Positions 25,817-62,335 of a stretch of 64,000 bases of DNA are shown piece by piece. The position numbers were made by a program, and so were the translations under genes. Under the pieces are notes generated by a model, which had not been told where the DNA came from, ran no database searches, and was given only the letters and a program-made list of their open reading frames with translations. The first letter of the stretch is position 1. Each line of letters opens with the position of its first letter. Location of the stretch: contig JAFRUS010000093.1 of the NCBI GenBank assembly GCA_017438745.1, forward strand, positions 3,794 to 67,793. The letters are read 5' to 3'. Origin of the DNA: Oscillospiraceae bacterium. Its GTDB lineage: Bacteria; Bacillota; Clostridia; Oscillospirales; Ruminococcaceae.

Positions 25817-25859
25817 AGTAGTGAAATGAAAAAAGGTTATATGAAAGGAAAAAAGTAAT

Positions 25860-27698
25860 ATGTGCGGTATAGTAGGTTTTACAGGAAGAAAGCAGGCTGC
25901 TCCGGTACTCCTGAGCGGGCTTTCAAAACTTGAGTACAGAGGATATGATTCAGCTGGTATTGCAGTACGTGACGGAGATAAGGCTCCGGAAGTAGTTAAG
26001 GCAAAGGGCAAGCTCAAAGTCCTCATTGAAAAAACAAATGAAGGTGCTGCAGTTAAGGGAAGCTGCGGTATCGGCCATACAAGATGGGCTACTCACGGCG
26101 AACCGTCTGAACTCAATGCACATCCTCACTCCAGTGATGATGAAAATGTTATCGCAGTTCACAACGGTATCATCGAGAACTATCAGGAACTCAAGGAAAA
26201 GCTTACAAAGAGCGGCTATACATTCTGTTCACAGACAGATACAGAAGTTGCTGTTAAGCTTATTGATTACTATTTCAAGAAATATGCTCTCGGTCCGGTC
26301 GATTCAATTGCACGTGCAATGATGCGTATCCGCGGTTCATATGCACTCGCAGTAATGTTCAAGGATTATCCGGGCGAGATCTATACAGCAAGAAAGGACA
26401 GCCCGATGATCATCGGTATAGCAGACGGCGAAACATACGTTGCTTCTGACGTTCCGGCTATCCTCAACTACACAAGAAATGTTTATTACATCGGAAATCT
26501 TGAAATTGCAAGACTTGCTGAGGGTCAGGCTACTTTCTATAATATCGACCGTGAAGAAATCGAAAAGCCTCTCACAGAGATCAAGTGGGATGCTGAAGCT
26601 GCTGAAAAGGGCGGATACGAACATTTCATGCTCAAGGAGATCCACGAACAGCCTGAGGTTATCAAAAATACCATCAACTCTGTTCTTAAGGACGGCGAAG
26701 TTAAGTTTGCTGAATTCGATCTTTCAGATGAGGAAATGAAGAGCATCAACCAGATCTACATTGTTGCCTGCGGTTCAGCTTATCATGTCGGAATGGCAAT
26801 GCAGTATGTAATGGAGGAACTCACTTCGATCAATGTCCGCGTTGAACTTGCTTCAGAGTTCCGTTACAGAAAGATGTCACTTATCAAGAACAGCCTTGTT
26901 ATCATCATCAGCCAGTCAGGTGAAACTGCAGACAGCCTTGCAGCTCTTCGTGAAGCAAAGGAAAACGGTATAAAGACACTTGGTATCGTAAACGTTGTAG
27001 GTTCATCTATCGCACGAGAAGCTGACAATGTATTCTATACACTTGCCGGTCCTGAGATCTCAGTAGCAACAACAAAGGCTTATTCAACACAGCTTGTCGC
27101 AGGATATCTCCTTTCAATCCAGTTTGCGAAGGCAAGAGGCGAGATCACTGATGAACGCTACAATGAACTCATCACCGAGATCCAGACACTTCCTTCAAAG
27201 ATCGCAAAGATCCTTGAGGACAAGGAACGTATTCAGTGGTATGCAAACAAGCTTGTAAACATAAAGGATGCATTCTTCATCGGACGTGGCATAGACTACG
27301 CTATCAGTCTTGAGGGAAGCCTTAAGATGAAGGAGATAAGCTACATTCATTCAGAGGCATATGCTGCAGGTGAGCTCAAGCACGGACCTATCAGCCTTAT
27401 TGAAGACGGCACAGTCGTTATCGGTGTGCTTACACAGCCGGCTCTGTATGAAAAGACAGTCAGCAACATGGTAGAGGTTAAGAGCCGTGGCGCATCACTT
27501 ATGGGCCTTACAACTTATGGTAATTACTCAATTGAAGATACTTCTGACTTCACAGTTTACGTTCCGCAGACTGATCCGCTTTTCGCAGGAAGCCTTTCAG
27601 TAATTCCGCTCCAGCTTCTCGGATACTACGTTTCAGTAGGCAAGGGTTACGACGTTGACAAGCCGAGAAACCTTGCAAAGAGTGTTACAGTAGAATAA
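25860..27698 (+). CDS. glmS: Glutamine--fructose-6-phosphate aminotransferase
   Basis: 612 aa. MCGIVGF Ntn-amidotransferase start, two SIS domains and the C-terminal AKSVTVE. Confidence 0.95.
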   Translation: MCGIVGFTGRKQAAPVLLSGLSKLEYRGYDSAGIAVRDGDKAPEVVKAKGKLKVLIEKTNEGAAVKGSCGIGHTRWATHGEPSELNAHPHSSDDENVIAVHNGIIENYQELKEKLTKSGYTFCSQTDTEVAVKLIDYYFKKYALGPVDSIARAMMRIRGSYALAVMFKDYPGEIYTARKDSPMIIGIADGETYVASDVPAILNYTRNVYYIGNLEIARLAEGQATFYNIDREEIEKPLTEIKWDAEAAEKGGYEHFMLKEIHEQPEVIKNTINSVLKDGEVKFAEFDLSDEEMKSINQIYIVACGSAYHVGMAMQYVMEELTSINVRVELASEFRYRKMSLIKNSLVIIISQSGETADSLAALREAKENGIKTLGIVNVVGSSIAREADNVFYTLAGPEISVATTKAYSTQLVAGYLLSIQFAKARGEITDERYNELITEIQTLPSKIAKILEDKERIQWYANKLVNIKDAFFIGRGIDYAISLEGSLKMKEISYIHSEAYAAGELKHGPISLIEDGTVVIGVLTQPALYEKTVSNMVEVKSRGASLMGLTTYGNYSIEDTSDFTVYVPQTDPLFAGSLSVIPLQLLGYYVSVGKGYDVDKPRNLAKSVTVE

Positions 27699-27814
27699 TT
27701 ACTGTGAAGGTCAAAACAGATTATTCTTTTACTGTACTTTACAGTCAGATTTAAAATACAAATCCAAAAAGCAAGTTATATCTTGCGGAATTTTACTGTT
27801 TTATAACTAAGATC

Positions 27815-27856
27815 AAAAAAGTCTTTCAGAAATTTTTTCTGAAAGACTTTTTTTAT
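27815..27856 (+). terminator. Strong rho-independent terminator after glmS
   Basis: Stem aaaaagtctttcaga / tctgaaagacttttt plus a T run. Confidence 0.85.
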
Positions 27857-28130
27857 TATAATACAGCTTTTGTGAACTTCATACGGAAAAAGTGTTTTTC
27901 TTTTATGTAATAAAACGAAATTCAGATCCGGAACTTGACTTAGTAGTGAAATAATACTATACTTAGTATATGAAAACTACTAACACTTATCTGTATCATT
28001 CGGATAAAGCATTTTTCACGGTGATGAACATTTTTTTGAATGAATTTGAATTTCGGAAGTTCTCTGAATCAGCTCTTATATATTAGAAATCACTAAATAT
28101 GAGTACAAATTTGTTATAAAAGTGCAATAA

Positions 28131-28159
28131 TTGCATAGATAAATACCGGGCAGTATGAT
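28131..28159 (+). promoter_or_regulatory. Candidate promoter of the giant-protein cassette
   Basis: TTGCAT, 17 nt, TATGAT, about 150 nt upstream of ATG 28311. Confidence 0.45.
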
Positions 28160-28310
28160 ACAATTAAATTGCAAGTTACAGTAAAGACCGGAAAATTTGT
28201 CTTTAACCGTAAGCCGTTATGTATCTGCAGCCTGAGAAAGGGCGTGCAGCGTGACGGTACCTGATGATACAGACAAACAGCATTTGAAAACAGAATAAGG
28301 AGAAACCACT

Positions 28311-31300
28311 ATGAGCATTTTTGCAAAAAGATTATCGTCGCTTAAGGCTGGTACAGGCATAAGACTCACAAGCAGCAGCGGCAGGTCGATAACAGGGATA
28401 ATTGAGGAAAATGACGGGGTTGAATCATTATCTGTAAAGATCACTTCACATGTTTGTCTGAAGTATTCACAGATCATTGAATTTGAAGAAAACGAGGAAA
28501 CAGGTTTTACAAATCAGCCATTTGTCCCTTCTGTATCATCACAGCCAGTAAACCCATACGGAGTACCGCAGCCGCAGCAGTATGCGATGCCATCGCCAGT
28601 GGCATACCAGTATGCTGTACCACAGCCTCTGATGGCTGCAGCATCGCAGTCGCTGGATGTAAGCCAGTCCGCAGTGCCGCAGTCACCGGCAGCAGATCAG
28701 AATGCAGTACTGCAGCCTCAGTGTGAAACACCATCTCCGGAAGCAGAGAACACTGCACAGGTAACACCGCCTGTTACTGAAGGAGCAGTTTCCGGATCAT
28801 CTGACGCAGTTCAGGATGAGAAATGTGAAGGTTCTGAGGCAAAGGATGAAGCATCTGTCGACAGCGCAGCAGAGATATCTGCCGAACCGGAAGAAAAAAA
28901 GCAGCCGGATAATACGATACATTCCGGAACGATGATAAAGTATGATTTCCATGAGGGCGAAGGCATCATCGCTGATGCGGACGGTGAGACTATCTGTTTC
29001 CTTTCAGATGACATTACTGAGGCATCCACAAAAAGAAAGATCAAGAAGATGTCACTGAACAATTTCAAGGAAATGGACCTTATGTACAAGGTAAAGATGA
29101 TGCGCGGCAAAAAATATGCCTATGACATAAGAAAGCCATATGATACGTCAGCTGATAACAGTGAAAAGGAAAAAACAAAGTCTGAGGTAAAAGTCAAGGT
29201 TTTACCGAAAGAAAACAGACTTGATCAGATCTATAATCTGATAAACTGCAAAAAACACAGGGAAGCGATAAATTCTGCAATGCTGCTGCTTTGCAGTGAA
29301 GATGCCGAAGAAGCTATGCGCATAATAATCGAGACATATCGCCATCTCGCAAAAAGTGATCCGGAGGACAAAAAGAGACTCCGTGAGTTTACTGACAGAT
29401 TCAGTGAGCGTAACTTCATGTCAGATAAAACTTATCAGTGCCTGAGCGATGCTTATTATTCACTTGAAGACTATCCGAAATGTATAGAGCTTCTGGACAG
29501 AATGCTTGAGTGTGCAGATCCGTCTGATGTTTCAGCTGCAGTCAACGCACATTACAGAAAGGCTGTATGTTATCGTGCGATGGATGATCACAGTTCTGCA
29601 GTAAAAGAGCTTGAAATCTGGTTCGATATAACTGACAGGCTCGGAAGTGACAGTTATGTTAATATGAAAAACAACAGCCTGTATGCTATGATCGCTGAAT
29701 CATATGCATATATCCGTGAATACAGAAAAGCTGAAAAGTATGCAGATCTTATGCCTGATTCATCAAGGAAAAAAACTACGTTAAGAAAAATCAACGAGCT
29801 GATGCGCAAGGAGAATGATCTGATACTCATCAGTGATTCTGAGGTATATGATCCGGCTTCCCGCAAAGCACTGGATGATGCATATGCCCTGTACCATGAT
29901 GTATACGGAACGGAAAACTTTGAACTTTCAGATGAAAAGGTTATTTCGAAGATAAGATGGTTCAGAAAAAATGATCTCTATGCACTGCTCACCTGGCTGA
30001 CTGCAGCTTCGCGTATTGCAGTTTCCGGAAACTATAATGACGCTTCAGTAAATGATCCGGATGTAACTGTATCGGAAGCAGTTCAGAGTATTGAAAAGGC
30101 TTTCAGTTACGCTTTTGATAATCCTTTGTCAGAATCAGAATGTATCTATAACAGCGGATACATTATCGGTGCTTTTGAAGCATCACACAGACTCATTCCG
30201 GTTTGCCATGACGGACTGCTGATCTCATCTGTTTTACGTACTATGTTTAACGCAGAACAGGATGATTATTATCTTGATGATCTTATCTGTGCAGCAGAAG
30301 TTACTGAGTTCGGACGTAAGTATGATGTGCTTACGAATCTTCTGAATACACTCAGAATATTTTACGATAACACTCAGATTTCGCTTGGAAGATGTATTGA
30401 AACAGATGAACAGGGAAATGTTGATGTTTGTCTGAATCTTAAAAACAGAAGCCTTATCAGGCAGTGGTATAATGGCGTATCAGACAATGTTAAGAACCAG
30501 CTCGAAGGTCTTATCCAGTCTGCTCATTCTGAGGAAGATGAAAGCGGATTCAACTGGGGTATTTACAGCATCGGATATACTGCGAAGGAGATACTTGACA
30601 GGCTTAACGGATGTTATGATGAAAAAGGCAGAAAGTATTTCTTTATAAGATTCCTTGAAAACGAAGAGGTGCTTCTTGACGATGATTTCCTTCCGGAGAT
30701 TTGCGGTACTTTCTGCGGCATTGAAAAAATGAATATTCTTTCACGTATCGAGCGCCATGTGGATACAGAAAGATTTACACTGAACGAAAGATTAAAGCAG
30801 CTTTTCAGCGAGCCGAAGGAAAAACATAATTTCAGAAGCGTAAGACTGATAAAGAAATATGCCAGCGATATTAAGGATAAGAAGCTGGAGAATAGTCCTG
30901 AGTTCGGCCATTATACTGAATGCATGTTCCATGATAAAAAATGCTTTATGACATGTCTGAGTGATTTTGAGCTTGATCTGGATCTTTACGAGAGCTGGGG
31001 AACGTTATCCGCTGAAAACGGTGATAAGAAAAAGATACTTGATCTTGTCCGTGTCTGGTTCAGAATAACTACTCTTACCAGCGATTTCGGATTTTTCAGA
31101 ACACTTCTTAGCTGCATAAGGGAACAGATAGAGATAAATGCCGAAGACCACGGCAATGAACTGATGAGCACACTGGTCGGACTAACTGTCAGTCAGGATC
31201 ATTCAGTTGGTGAAGATTCAAAGAACAGAATAGCGTCATATATAGAGCAGAAGAATTTCAAATCGGCTGAATTTCTTCTTGACTGCATACGAAGAAAAGA

Positions 31301-32849
31301 CACAGTTGCAGTTGAAGATTATTCTGCAGAGCCGTTTAGTTATTTTTCAGAATTCGTAAGCGAACATGCAAAGAACTACCGTCTTGTTTTCGGTACGGAG
31401 AAGAGCATGGGTGAAATAATAAAGCTCAATTCCGGAAAGCAAAACCTTGAAGATGCTTTAGTTTACTGCAGTAATAACCAGACTGAAGACAGTGTCAGAT
31501 CTGCAGGACTTATCAGAAACTGGATCTGGTCAGATGGCAAAGAAGGAGAAACCATATCAGCTATAGAAAAACTTATGAGCCTGATTGGATTTGATGTTTC
31601 AGAAGTCATAGCAGATCCTGAGACGGCAGATGATAAGCATTTCATGGTATACTGCCGCGACAGTGAAAAGACTGTTTCACATCCTGTTCCTGCATTCGGA
31701 TCAAAGACAGTTACAGACGGATTCCGCGTATTATGTCTTTACGGCAGAAACAAGACAAGTGATCTTATTCAGAGCTTTAAGGAAAATTCAGAACAGAAAC
31801 CGATCCCGACCCTGGTATTACTTGATTATACGCTCAACATGGAAGTCAGAAGGGAACTTGCAATGGCAATAAAGCAGGATGATAAGCTAAATAATGTTTT
31901 CCTCGTGGCTGACCGTGTGGTACTCTTCCATCTTGCAAGACACTATTCAGAAGAAACGATCTTAAAGCGTTTCCTTGCTGTGACAGTTCCGTTTTCAAAT
32001 TACCAGCCGTATGAGAATGTTTCAGGTAAGAAGCTTCCGCCGGAACTTATGACGGAAAGCGAACTTATGAAAGTTCAGGGTAACGGCGATATTACTGCTG
32101 CCGGTGAAAAACTCAGAGCAGAGGCTGTCCGTATCCTTACAGCACCGCTTGCCTATACAGGAATTCATCTGAGCGAAGAAATGCTCACAATGATCCTCTC
32201 TGAAACAGAATGCGATCCTGTCCGTGTACGCATGGGCGGAAAGAGCCTTGTTTCTGTACTCGGTAACAAAGACTATGCCGGATATGAAGAAACAGATACT
32301 CCGTATTACGAAGTAAGCAATGTGCATTATCTGAAAGCACTTTCCGTTCTGAAAGAAATGACAGAAAACTTCGCCGAAGAACCTGAGGAAGAAGAGATTG
32401 CCGAAGAACCGGTTGAAACTGAGAACGTCGAAGAATCATTTGAATCTGAGGCAGCTGAAGAATCCGAGGAAACAGAAAACGTCGAAGAAGAAATAGAATC
32501 TGAGGCAACTGAAGAATCAGAGGAAACAGAGAATGTCGATGAAGTGATTGAATCTGAGGCAACTGAAGAACCTGAGGAAACAGAGAATGTCGATGAAGTG
32601 ATTGAATCTGAGACAACTGAAGAATCAGAGGGAACAGAGTATGTTGAAGAAGCAATTGAATCTGAGACAGCTGAAGTTTCAGAGGAAACTGAAATCATCG
32701 AAGAATCAGATGAATCCGAGACAATTGAGTTTTCAGAAGAAACTGAGATAGCCGAAGAAGAGATTGAATTTTCATCAGAAGAAATCGCTGATTCAGAAAC
32801 TGATTTTCCGGAAGAGATTATGGCAGTAACAGAGGCAGGTGATTGCTGA
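28311..32849 (+). CDS. 1512-aa multidomain protein of unknown function (cold-shock/OB-like segment, TPR-like repeats, long helical region, acidic tandem-repeat tail)
   Basis: AAGGAG RBS 8 nt upstream. P/Q-rich linker at aa 65-200. HSGTMIKYDFHEGEGIIADADGETICFLSDDI (aa 203-235) is cold-shock-like. TPR-like helices at about aa 300-480. No GxxxxGK[ST] motif. The tail is six 54-bp repeats. Confidence 0.8.
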   Translation: MSIFAKRLSSLKAGTGIRLTSSSGRSITGIIEENDGVESLSVKITSHVCLKYSQIIEFEENEETGFTNQPFVPSVSSQPVNPYGVPQPQQYAMPSPVAYQYAVPQPLMAAASQSLDVSQSAVPQSPAADQNAVLQPQCETPSPEAENTAQVTPPVTEGAVSGSSDAVQDEKCEGSEAKDEASVDSAAEISAEPEEKKQPDNTIHSGTMIKYDFHEGEGIIADADGETICFLSDDITEASTKRKIKKMSLNNFKEMDLMYKVKMMRGKKYAYDIRKPYDTSADNSEKEKTKSEVKVKVLPKENRLDQIYNLINCKKHREAINSAMLLLCSEDAEEAMRIIIETYRHLAKSDPEDKKRLREFTDRFSERNFMSDKTYQCLSDAYYSLEDYPKCIELLDRMLECADPSDVSAAVNAHYRKAVCYRAMDDHSSAVKELEIWFDITDRLGSDSYVNMKNNSLYAMIAESYAYIREYRKAEKYADLMPDSSRKKTTLRKINELMRKENDLILISDSEVYDPASRKALDDAYALYHDVYGTENFELSDEKVISKIRWFRKNDLYALLTWLTAASRIAVSGNYNDASVNDPDVTVSEAVQSIEKAFSYAFDNPLSESECIYNSGYIIGAFEASHRLIPVCHDGLLISSVLRTMFNAEQDDYYLDDLICAAEVTEFGRKYDVLTNLLNTLRIFYDNTQISLGRCIETDEQGNVDVCLNLKNRSLIRQWYNGVSDNVKNQLEGLIQSAHSEEDESGFNWGIYSIGYTAKEILDRLNGCYDEKGRKYFFIRFLENEEVLLDDDFLPEICGTFCGIEKMNILSRIERHVDTERFTLNERLKQLFSEPKEKHNFRSVRLIKKYASDIKDKKLENSPEFGHYTECMFHDKKCFMTCLSDFELDLDLYESWGTLSAENGDKKKILDLVRVWFRITTLTSDFGFFRTLLSCIREQIEINAEDHGNELMSTLVGLTVSQDHSVGEDSKNRIASYIEQKNFKSAEFLLDCIRRKDTVAVEDYSAEPFSYFSEFVSEHAKNYRLVFGTEKSMGEIIKLNSGKQNLEDALVYCSNNQTEDSVRSAGLIRNWIWSDGKEGETISAIEKLMSLIGFDVSEVIADPETADDKHFMVYCRDSEKTVSHPVPAFGSKTVTDGFRVLCLYGRNKTSDLIQSFKENSEQKPIPTLVLLDYTLNMEVRRELAMAIKQDDKLNNVFLVADRVVLFHLARHYSEETILKRFLAVTVPFSNYQPYENVSGKKLPPELMTESELMKVQGNGDITAAGEKLRAEAVRILTAPLAYTGIHLSEEMLTMILSETECDPVRVRMGGKSLVSVLGNKDYAGYEETDTPYYEVSNVHYLKALSVLKEMTENFAEEPEEEEIAEEPVETENVEESFESEAAEESEETENVEEEIESEATEESEETENVDEVIESEATEEPEETENVDEVIESETTEESEGTEYVEEAIESETAEVSEETEIIEESDESETIEFSEETEIAEEEIEFSSEEIADSETDFPEEIMAVTEAGDC
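32388..32765 (+). repeat. In-frame 54-bp (18-aa) tandem repeat, about 6-7 units, encoding ESEATEESEETENVDEVI-type acidic units
   Basis: The gaatctgag unit starts at 32442, 32496, 32550, 32604, 32658 and 32712, an exact 54-nt spacing. Confidence 0.9.
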
Positions 32850-33895
32850 TGAAAACAGAAGAGATTTGGTGGACCAGACTCAGCAATTCAGTTCGTTTTC
32901 TTGAGGACGCCAGAGATGCTCTGTTAAGCGGCAGGTCGGTCGTAATGACTTTTCCGGACGAAGTCCCGTGGCAGGATGTTATGACCGACACCCTTGAACA
33001 GCATCTTTTTCCAATAACGGATGAACGTTCTTTTGAAGTGCATGATGTTTCCGAATCAGATGATGATCCGGGTCTGTATCTTTTCAATAATTTCTGCAGT
33101 GAGACCGAACGTGCAAAATACTGGCCTGCGACCCACGGAAGCTATGAAAAGTTTCTCGCGGCTAACGACAATGTAAGGCTCAATCGCCGTATAGTTTGTA
33201 TCACCGGACTCAGTGTGTTCAATACATCAAGATGGGTGAAAGCAGTAAACGAGTATCTTGCAGGCAGAAATTCAGATAAGAGGGGAATTTTCATTCTCGT
33301 TTCCCAGAAAGTAAAATCATACAGCACTGACTTCATGGAATGCTTTGATTTTGAAGAGTATGTCAGCGACTACGACTGCCGTATGCTATGCCTCACTCTG
33401 CTGTCTTCAGTAAAATGCAGCAGTAGCCGGAAACAGTATATTTCAGAGATAGCCGCTGGTATTGCCAAAAACGATGTTACAAAAGCCGGAATACTTGCAT
33501 CCGCCGGACTGCAGCTTGCTATGCATCCGTACGAAACTGCAAAATGGTTATACACTGAGAACGGCCTTTCAGATGAAAATCTTGAGAAGCACGTAAAATC
33601 TGCCGTCTGGTCCGCACAGATAAGACTTGTTTTCCCGGAAATCGAGGAGTTCAGAAGCGGGATGATATGCAGGTATGAAAAAAATTTTGAACGTTTTCTC
33701 CCTGTATCAAGCCTTCTCGGCGAGCAGATATACAGAGCCGATGATCTTGAAATAGGACACCTGTATATTCTATGTACCAATCACAAGGTGATAAACCAGC
33801 CTGAATACGAAAAACTGGTCTTAATGCGAAAATTCAGAAACCGCCTCGCCCACTGCGATGTTATTCCATATCCGGATCTCAACGCATGGCTGTAA
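32849..33895 (+). CDS. 348-aa protein with a C-terminal HEPN-like RNxxAH (Rx4H) motif; N-terminal alpha/beta domain unknown
   Basis: ATG 32849 shares its A with the upstream TGA (ctgATGa). AGGTGA RBS 7 nt upstream. FRNRLAH is encoded at 33833-53 (RNRLAH at 33836-33853). Confidence 0.7.
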   Translation: MKTEEIWWTRLSNSVRFLEDARDALLSGRSVVMTFPDEVPWQDVMTDTLEQHLFPITDERSFEVHDVSESDDDPGLYLFNNFCSETERAKYWPATHGSYEKFLAANDNVRLNRRIVCITGLSVFNTSRWVKAVNEYLAGRNSDKRGIFILVSQKVKSYSTDFMECFDFEEYVSDYDCRMLCLTLLSSVKCSSSRKQYISEIAAGIAKNDVTKAGILASAGLQLAMHPYETAKWLYTENGLSDENLEKHVKSAVWSAQIRLVFPEIEEFRSGMICRYEKNFERFLPVSSLLGEQIYRADDLEIGHLYILCTNHKVINQPEYEKLVLMRKFRNRLAHCDVIPYPDLNAWL

Positions 33896-33900
33896 AAATA

Positions 33901-33950
33901 TCCCCCGGAACGTTATCAAGTTTGATACGTTTCGGGGGATTGGTGTTTTC
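33901..33950 (+). terminator. Probable terminator of the two-gene cassette
   Basis: Stem tcccccggaacg / cgtttcggggga followed by ttggtgtttt. Confidence 0.55.
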
Positions 33951-33993
33951 TAGACTCAGAAAAAGGTAATGGCACCTCGAAGAAGCGTACATT

Positions 33994-62156: not shown

Positions 62157-62233
62157 TGGTGCGCCTGGAGGGGCTCGAACCCCCGACCTACTGGTTCGTA
62201 GCCAGTCACTCTATCCAGCTGAGCTACAGACGC
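62157..62233 (-). tRNA. tRNA-Arg (anticodon ACG), CCA encoded
   Basis: The reverse complement GCGTCTGTAGCTCAGCTGGATAGAGTGACTGGCTACGAACCAGTAGGTCGGGGGTTCGAGCCCCTCCAGGCGCACCA folds as a cloverleaf. Anticodon loop CTACGAA. Confidence 0.95.
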
Positions 62234-62262
62234 ATGTGGGTTTGATTTTGTTTTAAATCAAG

Positions 62263-62335
62263 TGAGGTATTGGGGATTCGAACCCCAGACCCTTTGATTA
62301 AAAGTCAAATGCTCTGCCAACTGAGCTAATACCTC
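62263..62335 (-). tRNA. tRNA-Lys (anticodon TTT), CCA not encoded
   Basis: The reverse complement GAGGTATTAGCTCAGTTGGCAGAGCATTTGACTTTTAATCAAAGGGTCTGGGGTTCGAATCCCCAATACCTCA folds as a cloverleaf. Anticodon loop CTTTTAA. Confidence 0.95.

Follow-up and report, generated by a model that had tools for sequence, protein, structure and literature searches.

A widespread, unnamed pairing of a giant scaffold protein with a putative HEPN-type partner, present as an NTPase-less variant in an Oscillospiraceae genome

Analysis of a 64,000-nucleotide (nt) stretch of DNA from an Oscillospiraceae bacterium (assembly GCA_017438745.1, contig JAFRUS010000093.1, positions 3,794 to 67,793; referred to here in its whole length as the window) centers on a cassette of two genes inserted downstream of glmS, in which a gene for a 1512-amino acid (aa) protein (gene 1) overlaps a gene for a 348-aa partner (gene 2). 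We give roughly even weight to the view that this cassette is a copy of a widespread and unnamed two-component conflict system, the function of which is inferred, and that the window copy is a STAND-plus-HEPN variant that has lost its nucleoside triphosphatase (NTPase). Judged from sequence, anti-phage defence would be the most likely role of such a system.

The family to which gene 2 belongs is large, with a word-index search returning 20 relatives and an exhaustive profile search returning 1651 clusters (50% identity, expect value (E) <=1e-3), all of ~350 aa and none of which carries a name. A word-index search with full-length gene 1 gave only three matches, swamped by low-complexity sequence, and the family of large proteins was instead recovered from the loci around gene 2 relatives and by searching with an NTPase-module profile. 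Co-occurrence of the two genes is a consistent property, as 26 full-length loci from other species have the pair in this order with stop and start codons that abut or overlap, and the arrangement is also seen in split relatives and on plasmids. The giant gene is located directly upstream of the partner in every complete locus, with overlaps of 1 or 4 nt in all gene calls examined. Within gene 2, residues R330 and H335 of an RNRLAH sequence are invariant in 138 diverse representatives, while N331, A334, E266 and R269 are at least 90% conserved. The more general form R[ND]xx[AS]H is present in 144 of 147 representatives, the exceptions being two truncated sequences and one RCSLAH variant. The Rx4H motif that drew attention to this locus in an earlier sequence-only reading is therefore near-invariant across the family and no chance hexapeptide.

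The inserted segment and its two genes

The features of the cassette are listed below, with ratios of non-synonymous to synonymous substitution (dN/dS) computed against two close relatives (loci L055 and L056) from small counts (tens of changes).

27725-33892, plus strand: inserted accessory segment of ~6.17 kb that comprises both genes together with a hairpin, a promoter-like site and a 5' leader, defined by an empty site in relative L057
27812-27856, unstranded: near-perfect palindromic hairpin with A- and T-runs at its sides and 21-nt arms that are 95% complementary, a bidirectional terminator-like insulator absent from the L057 empty site
27935-27963, plus strand: best sigma-70-like promoter match before gene 1 (TTGACT, 17-nt spacer, TATACT; 10 of 12 positions), a consensus match only
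28297-28302, plus strand: AAGGAG ribosome-binding site, read from sequence, 8 nt 5' of the gene 1 ATG
28311-32849, plus strand: gene 1, 1512 aa, a shortened and fused representative of the giant-partner family (dN/dS 0.22-0.31)
28311-28496, plus strand: gene 1 aa 1-62, small beta-rich N-terminal module recognized by family conservation
28497-28910, plus strand: gene 1 aa 63-200, P/Q/A-rich linker (dN/dS 0.47-0.67)
28911-29135, plus strand: gene 1 aa 201-275, small conserved domain of putative fold with invariant G206 and G218 (dN 0)
29136-29891, plus strand: gene 1 aa 276-527, TPR-like helical repeat region, from weak TPR/PPR matches
29892-31613, plus strand: gene 1 aa 528-1101, conserved helical core of 574 aa outside known families (dN/dS 0.08-0.09)
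31614-32051, plus strand: gene 1 aa 1102-1247, conserved alpha/beta domain (PAFGS..., LLDY, DRV, PF.YQP) that precedes the NTPase in all relatives
32052-32366, plus strand: gene 1 aa 1248-1352, STAND-like NTPase remnant that by alignment to relatives keeps the lid and a DYAGY...PYYEV segment
32367-32846, plus strand: gene 1 aa 1353-1512, hyper-acidic tail in place of the relatives' winged helix (dN/dS 0.46-0.59)
32849-33895, plus strand: gene 2, 348 aa, its ATG overlapping the gene 1 stop by one base (dN/dS 0.04-0.15; AlphaFold2 model with a mean predicted local distance difference test score, pLDDT, of 91.8)
32849-33508, plus strand: gene 2 aa 1 to ~220, AAA+/clamp-loader-like alpha/beta domain and helical lid by Foldseek, without Walker A or B
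33509-33892, plus strand: gene 2 aa ~221-348, HEPN-like helical domain by model layout and conservation
33836-33853, plus strand: RNRLAH, the conserved Rx4H motif (R330-H335), at the end of helix-3
~33901-33950, unstranded: GC-rich hairpin and T-run that directly follows glmS in the cassette-less L057

Both open reading frames (ORFs), the one-base overlap of TGA and ATG, the ribosome-binding site, RNRLAH and the acidic repeats are all present as the sequence-only reading described them. At the junction (TGC TGA TGA AAA) the A of the TGA stop (32847-32849) is also the A of the ATG (32849-32851), and this ATG is taken as the start of gene 2 in preference to an upstream TTG at 32843 because M1 is invariant across the family alignment. 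The AT-rich spacer was likewise borne out. It extends for 612 bp from the glmS stop at 27698 to gene 1, has a G+C fraction of 0.33-0.37 and has no ORF of 60 aa or more wholly within it.

The limits of the cassette are defined by L057, a close relative in which both flanks are 93-96% identical to those of the window and in which window position ~27724 is joined to 33893 with ~5 nt between. Since this empty site is precise, the segment from 27725 to 33892 is a presence/absence polymorphism. Loci L055 and L056 contain the pair at the same site, with parC-glmS on one side and the sigma/anti-sigma genes on the other. The cassette is an accessory insertion that varies between strains, and this agrees with the initial description of a self-contained, co-translated unit inserted among housekeeping genes with a convergent sigma/anti-sigma pair downstream. 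One boundary was misassigned in that description. The hairpin that had been read as the glmS terminator (27815-27856) travels with the cassette, given that the palindrome at 27812-27856 is missing from the empty site, and the native post-glmS terminator is the hairpin at 33901-33950, which a simple terminator scan did not call. That the cassette was acquired horizontally forms part of the best explanation, to which we attach the same even weight. Transposon-like ends were considered and rejected, as there are neither terminal inverted repeats nor a target duplication around the 6.17-kb insert. A core housekeeping pair, conserved universally at this locus, was also rejected given the empty site and a patchy spread in which the close fused form occurs at 40 loci among 185,579 species representatives. 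Nearly all of these loci are from Ruminococcus, Oscillospiraceae or Acutalibacteraceae, and they include the complete genome of R. callidus ATCC 27760 (L033).

The surroundings of the cassette show several additional features. In two relatives (L056:6354-7925 and L057:10949-12773) the post-glmS hairpin is separated from the anti-sigma gene by a second variable segment of ~1.8 kb, which contains three small ORFs (142, 147 and 237 aa), one with a weak DUF4869 match. This segment is absent from the window (junction ~33950-33981) and from L055. As this second segment occupies the same junction, the region between glmS and the anti-sigma gene looks like a hotspot for accessory cassettes. The gap between parC and glmS (25817-25859) is only 43 nt. 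An Rfam scan of the whole window detected two tRNAs at 62157-62335 as the sole families at gathering score and no glmS ribozyme, and no second, intact copy of the pair was found in the window.

Canonical, split and plasmid-borne relatives

Comparison of gene 1 with its relatives indicates what the window copy has lost. The 26 complete giants among the fetched loci are 1782-1950 aa in length with an invariant GGRQLGKS, and MLDEAD is invariant in a 25-member alignment of the NTPase module. This module gives weak matches, below threshold, to AAA_14 (24 of 25 members), AAA_22, ATPase_2 and AAA_16, and the C-terminal winged helix matches nSTAND_NTPase4 in 8 of 25 (best E 4.7e-4). The canonical giants are thus predicted from sequence to carry a STAND-like P-loop NTPase followed by a winged helix. 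In the window the whole P-loop core is deleted (~165 aa, corresponding to L033 1587-1752), such that both Walker A and Walker B are absent. The statement that neither protein has a canonical GxxxxGK[ST] is consequently true of the window copy yet misleading for the family, in which GGRQLGKS and MLDEAD are found in 26 of 28 complete partners retrieved, a total that counts the window protein. The PAFGSKT and TLVLLD sequences, which had been proposed as a broken P-loop and a Walker B, are both located in the separate conserved alpha/beta domain (aa 1102-1247), for which there is no Pfam or PDB sequence match. The true P-loop is downstream of this domain and is the part deleted here.

The remainder of gene 1 also departs from the canonical form in places. 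The N-terminal module contains six residues (G14, G24, G29, N34, D35 and Y52) that are at least 95% conserved among full-length giants, and gives faint Sm-like matches only (SM-ATX in 2 of 26 members, E 0.038). The P/Q/A-rich linker stands where full-length relatives have most of a ~165-aa helical domain (L033 170-334), and the helical core is without ~140 residues that relatives have within L033 884-1043. The cold-shock/OB-like resemblance of aa 203-235 gained no statistical support. Pfam CSD matches this type of domain in none of 26 members, and alignment of aa 201-275 with manually entered CspA/CspB sequences by hhalign reproduces the proposed register at E 0.078 with a probability of 0.7%. 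The suggested TPR-like pairs at aa ~300-480 fare better in one relative (L001), which just reaches the Pfam cut-off (TPR_12, 30.4 bits against 30.1), than in the window protein, where the signal is weak (aa 363-434, E 0.017-0.3, 11-16 bits). The acidic tail is built from a 54-bp tandem unit present in 5.8-6.6 copies that are 81-82% matching (32415-32769). Both the linker (28497-28910) and the tail (32367-32846) differ in length among near-identical relatives, whose giants are 1461, 1512 and 1565 aa long, and these differences may reflect repeat slippage.

The system also exists in pieces. A profile of the module comprised of the alpha/beta domain, NTPase and winged helix detects 160 proteins of 300-930 aa in Clostridia, at the loci of which the system is divided among two to five genes. 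The gene for the NTPase module is always directly before the gene 2 homologue (hmmsearch E 1e-59 to 1e-135), the pieces are collinear with the giant, and the helical core of gene 1 maps collinearly onto separate B proteins. Walker A (GGRQLGK[ST]) is found in the split systems as well, Walker B takes the form hhhhDE[AC] in most of them, and an RNxxAH-type motif is present in all of their partners but one, which looks frameshifted. Among close relatives, the open frame upstream of the partner is only ~800-917 aa at L018:7248-10001, L019:2-2755 and L043:7606-10002, and three 851-929-aa proteins on long contigs (P0025-P0027) match these short frames. Because of these proteins, and because L018 is not cut by a contig end (L019 is), the giant appears to be naturally split in some close relatives and not to be a frameshift artefact. 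At a further locus (L059:7570-10026) an 818-aa ORF with Cas9_REC and bridge-helix Pfam matches shares 26 nt with the beginning of the gene for the NTPase module. This ORF does not match the hidden Markov model of the giants, hence it is not homologous to the helical core, and it may be what is left of a Cas9 that became fused into the operon.

Searches by tblastn with the NTPase module as the only query that produced matches extend the family to plasmids of other phyla, and Walker A, the one motif examined there, is present in the plasmid giants checked. Gene 2 as query had no match at E<=1e-3 in either the plasmid or the phage collection, and the NTPase module had none in phages. The plasmid loci are as follows.

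Salinibacter ruber pSR118: giant of 1927 aa; next gene a 377-aa partner with RNRIAH (E 5e-25)
Thiodictyon pTs417: giant of 2038 aa; next gene a 384-aa partner with RNALAH (E 2e-23)
Azospirillum oryzae plasmid NZ_CP054617.1, L063:702-12142: giant of 3256 aa with GGRRLGKT, annotated as "RNaseH domain-containing protein"; next gene 525 aa
Brasilonema pBOCT2, L066:4600-14859: giant of 2289 aa with the same NTPase module; next gene a 1094-aa helicase, with no gene 2-type partner
Streptomyces sp. NBC_01546 plasmid, L067:5302-11388: giant of 2028 aa with the same NTPase module; no partner annotated or detected

The Azospirillum 525-aa gene ("AAA family ATPase") is differently wired, with its HEPN-like domain (E 2.5e-19) upstream of a genuine P-loop (GPTGAGKS). 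The Brasilonema and Streptomyces giants, which are without a gene 2-type partner, suggest that effectors have been exchanged. Such a constant NTPase module, combined with partners that can be swapped, is characteristic of conflict systems.

Genomic neighborhoods provide a link to defence and mobile genes that is suggestive, not strong. For example, L050:10681-17399 and L051:10385-17103 have genes for an AAA_15/AAA_21 ATPase, a Dam-type methyltransferase (MethyltransfD12) and an Abi_2 (AbiD/F-like) protein directly downstream of a split system, a neighborhood that resembles a defence island, and another split locus has Cas6, IS66 and an integrase as neighbors. Other loci have AAA_16 with patatin and a Cas9_REC fragment, or a CHAT protease. 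An integrase and recombinases are near the pair on pTs417, a transposase is present on pSR118, and on an IMG/VR contig the pair adjoins prophage replication genes. A census of 133 flanking ORFs contained a few MADS, AriA/PtuA-like and Csx1/Csm6 matches.

Mobility and tight linkage also fit a selfish cassette of the toxin-antitoxin or addiction type, in which gene 2 would be a HEPN-type toxin and the giant its stoichiometric inhibitor, with no dedicated anti-phage role. Translational coupling, fixed gene order, presence/absence polymorphism and plasmid carriage are all in keeping with such a module, and the survival of NTPase-less variants can be read as retention of the neutralizing function only. 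We nevertheless regard this as unlikely. An antitoxin of 1500-1950 aa with TPR, NTPase and winged helix would be far beyond known antitoxins, there is no MNT-type partner as in HepT-MntA, and the large-protein-first order and size ratio resemble sensor-effector systems. The match of gene 2 to HepT_toxin itself is also poor, reaching 12 bits against a 60-bit cut-off.

Loss of the NTPase raises the separate issue of whether the window copy is a dead remnant, inactivated by its deletions, with ORFs that have not yet decayed. The most conserved parts of the family are exactly the ones deleted, and the P/Q linker and acidic repeats that stand in for lost parts evolve fast (dN/dS 0.46-0.67) and vary in length. 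Other features speak against decay, and we consider a dead remnant improbable. Both ORFs are intact in three independent assemblies, dN/dS is low in gene 2 and in the helical core, and aa 201-275 of gene 1 have undergone no non-synonymous change, although the counts are small. These values argue that both window genes are under purifying selection and are not decaying pseudogenes. Additionally, L006:5316-11053 encodes a 1562-aa giant that, like the window protein, is without the P-loop core and the winged helix and that is further without the domain of the aa 201-275 type, and its intact partner retains RNRLAH. The boundaries of the L006 deletion differ from those of the window, and the window clade nests among P-loop-bearing members with L006 branching apart, which indicates that the P-loop core was lost twice. 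(A SIR2-family gene lies directly downstream of the L006 pair.) Given purifying selection on both genes, the window variant most likely still works as a scaffold for its HEPN partner.

The partner protein and its proposed mode of action

The description of gene 2 as a HEPN protein applies to its C-terminal part, as the first ~240 aa adopt, in the model, an AAA+/clamp-loader-like fold without Walker motifs. Foldseek matches of the full model in the PDB are headed entirely by AAA+/STAND proteins (RFC subunits, the NB-ARC of NRC, ORC/Cdc6, DnaA and RuvB), with E of 2.9e-4 to 1e-2, probability ~1.0 and template modelling (TM) scores of 0.3-0.4. GxxxxGK[ST] is absent from the window protein and occurs in one of 147 family representatives, where it is a chance match. 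An AAA+ fold in a family with neither Walker A nor Walker B indicates that the N-terminal domain is a pseudo-ATPase. The possibility that it is a paralogue of the giant's own NTPase gained no support from hhalign (probability 0.2%).

The C-terminal domain can be laid out in the model as helix-1 (~221-237), helix-2 (245-275), an insert (276-316) modelled as a beta-hairpin and short helix, helix-3 (317-334) and helix-4 (341-347). E266 and R269, which are invariant among the 27 closest relatives, lie in helix-2. According to a census of HEPN domains (PMC3710099), helix-2 bears a conserved acidic residue and helices 2 and 3 are separated by an insert, and at the level of secondary structure in the model, the motif position, helix-2 E266 and the helix-2/3 insert of gene 2 match this description. 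The weak Pfam matches of the family also concentrate on HEPN-clan models out of ~24,700 models in total. HEPN_Swt1 is matched by 27 of 138 members (best E 0.0023), with other sub-threshold matches to DUF4145, pEK499_p136, RiboL-PSP (E 0.0011), HepT-like and Abi_2. Sub-threshold NCBIfam matches are to DS11 (E 0.14) and HepT_toxin (E 0.14, aa 309-335). We conclude that the C-terminus of gene 2 probably belongs to the HEPN superfamily, with a putative metal-independent ribonuclease (RNase) activity that would depend on the R/H residues.

From these parts a mode of action can be proposed. The large protein, or the two to four separate proteins that replace it, would supply a sensor/scaffold, the alpha/beta domain, the STAND-like NTPase and the winged helix, and the ~350-aa partner would supply an AAA+-shaped pseudo-ATPase and a HEPN-like domain with its invariant Rx4H. 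Binding of a trigger by the scaffold would lead to assembly dependent on nucleoside triphosphate (NTP), upon which the pseudo-ATPase would dock onto the NTPase as inactive clamp-loader subunits do. Docking would place two HEPN domains side by side such that they create an RNase site, and subsequent RNA cleavage would arrest the infected cell. The HEPN dimer step is proposed because known HEPN RNases (RNase L, Ire1, Csm6 and Cas13) need two juxtaposed Rx4-6H motifs, while activation of the effector by oligomerization is borrowed from Avs/AVAST. In the window variant, the scaffold would hold and release its HEPN partner without an NTP switch, and as the NTP step is gone, control would have to rest on binding between scaffold and partner alone. 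In its most ambitious form, which we advance tentatively and hold to be less probable than the conflict-system assignment itself, this proposal would describe an unrecognized multi-phylum immune system, with a HEPN RNase on a pseudo-ATPase that plugs into a STAND scaffold. The window and L006 copies would then show that the NTPase switch can be deleted from a scaffold-effector pair that continues to function, implying a second type of effector control that is independent of NTP.

Several observations weigh against assignment of the cassette to a conflict system with a HEPN effector. The members of the family are known from sequences and models alone, and scans of both window proteins and seven relatives with Pfam, NCBIfam and PADLOC gave nothing significant. 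Specifically, the window gene 2 protein has no Pfam match and no HEPN match in the family reaches its curated cut-off. The weak HEPN matches are driven largely by the motif region and are thus not independent of the motif. Confirmation of the HEPN fold by structure comparison, which the sequence-only reading had considered decisive, was not obtained, as Foldseek with aa 240-348 modelled separately (pLDDT 94.7) retrieved no HEPN entry (best E 3.3 in the PDB and 2.0 in BFVD). Helix-1 had probably been lost with this choice of boundary, and small domains made up of helices alone are a weak point of Foldseek. The HEPN assignment is left with support from the invariant motif, its position at a helix end, a conserved acidic residue and the sub-threshold HEPN-clan matches, and with none from this fold search. 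There is also no profile link between the pseudo-ATPase and the giant's NTPase, and the mode of action of the window copy is speculative in that it is without the NTPase that the canonical mechanism needs. Finally, most of the 133 flanking genes are ordinary metabolic or regulatory genes, such that enrichment for defence islands is modest. PDB sequence searches with gene 2 and the NTPase module, by single sequence and by profile, produced only spurious matches (luciferase, the FNIP-repeat protein Crov588 and designed repeat proteins).

Some of these same observations would be expected if the R/H motif were not that of a nuclease and gene 2 were a non-catalytic adaptor, a clamp-loader-like pseudo-ATPase with a helical collar, with the pair forming an NTP-driven assembly or regulatory machine of other output, possibly the handling of RNA or nucleoprotein in particular lineages. 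Alignment of the complete gene 2 model with RFC subunits, in which a C-terminal helical collar mediates oligomerization, extends over its whole length (350-370 columns). The isolated C-terminal domain matches no HEPN structure, all HEPN profile matches are below threshold, and the Brasilonema giant has a helicase gene after it in place of the partner. This alternative has to account for R and H residues that are invariant at exact x4 spacing in 138 representatives, with N and A kept as in RNxxAH HEPN families. It must also account for a motif position and a helix-2 acidic residue that fit the HEPN description, for weak matches that concentrate on one Pfam clan, and for a patchy, strain-variable distribution that speaks against housekeeping. 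We think it has little likelihood, and favor a HEPN-type effector within a conflict system.

Significance and likeness to known systems

If the conflict-system assignment is true, then a system of >1600 sequence clusters has lacked a name, and STAND sensors would be wired to RNases in a new manner, via a separate pseudo-ATPase adaptor instead of a fused effector. It is found in gut and rumen Bacillota and on Salinibacter and Thiodictyon plasmids, and related giant genes are present on plasmids from cyanobacteria, Azospirillum and Streptomyces. The contribution of the NTPase could readily be tested with the two derivatives that lost it independently, and in rumen Ruminococcus the cassette would mark a site of strain variation with a possible influence on susceptibility to phages. 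If the R/H motif is non-catalytic, then the family is still a large, conserved and mobile two-protein machine with a function that would then be unassigned.

The initial impression that no named system matches was sustained by PADLOC. In PADLOC-DB v2.0.0 the window proteins have no match at E<=1 and the seven relatives have one marginal WH_III-A match. The architecture is also not described in the literature consulted (the HEPN census, DefensePredictor, a 2026 STAND survey and papers on DUF499/BREX). The cassette does resemble four known types of system, none of which is a family match. One of these is HepT-MntA (type VII toxin-antitoxin), along with other small HEPN toxins, which share an RNxxAH-type motif near the C-terminus at a helix end. 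The cassette differs from these in having no nucleotidyltransferase partner, and the gene 2 protein is three times larger with an extra pseudo-ATPase module.

A second likeness is with the inactive subunits of clamp loaders (RFC, gamma complex; delta, delta'), which have an AAA+ shape without nucleotide-binding motifs, as gene 2 does, and suggest how gene 2 would dock on active subunits. However, identity is 10-13%, TM-scores are 0.35-0.41, there is no replication context and the Rx4H motif of gene 2 is absent from clamp loaders. As modelled, this resemblance is one of fold and not of family.

A third likeness is with Avs/AVAST systems, in which a large P-loop protein of the STAND type is likewise combined with sensor regions that are TPR-like or helical and with a nuclease-type effector, and which are accessory and often found in defence islands. 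In contrast to the present pair, Avs is a single polypeptide in the order effector-NTPase-sensor, whereas here the large protein begins with the sensor/scaffold and has the NTPase towards its C-terminus, and a second protein provides the effector. Additionally, there is no match to a PADLOC Avs model, and the NTPase matches STAND/ORC-like Pfam models below threshold only.

The fourth likeness is with prokaryotic Swt1-like HEPN proteins, for which architectures with a STAND ATPase, TPR and S1/OB have been predicted (Npun_F6454, and the HEPN-AAA+ fusion Ava_2192; Anantharaman et al. 2013, PMC3710099). The HEPN-like domain here differs from these in being at the C-terminus of a separate pseudo-AAA+ protein and not on the polypeptide that bears the NTPase, the ~1000-aa helical core and the alpha/beta domain are unique to the giant, no member reaches the Pfam HEPN_Swt1 cut-off and the window copy is without an NTPase. 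Nevertheless, the Swt1-like architectures have the same parts list, with an Rx4-6H HEPN nearest to the Swt1-like type, a STAND-type NTPase, TPR and possibly an OB-like small domain, and share with the present family a predicted role in conflict and a patchy, mobile distribution.

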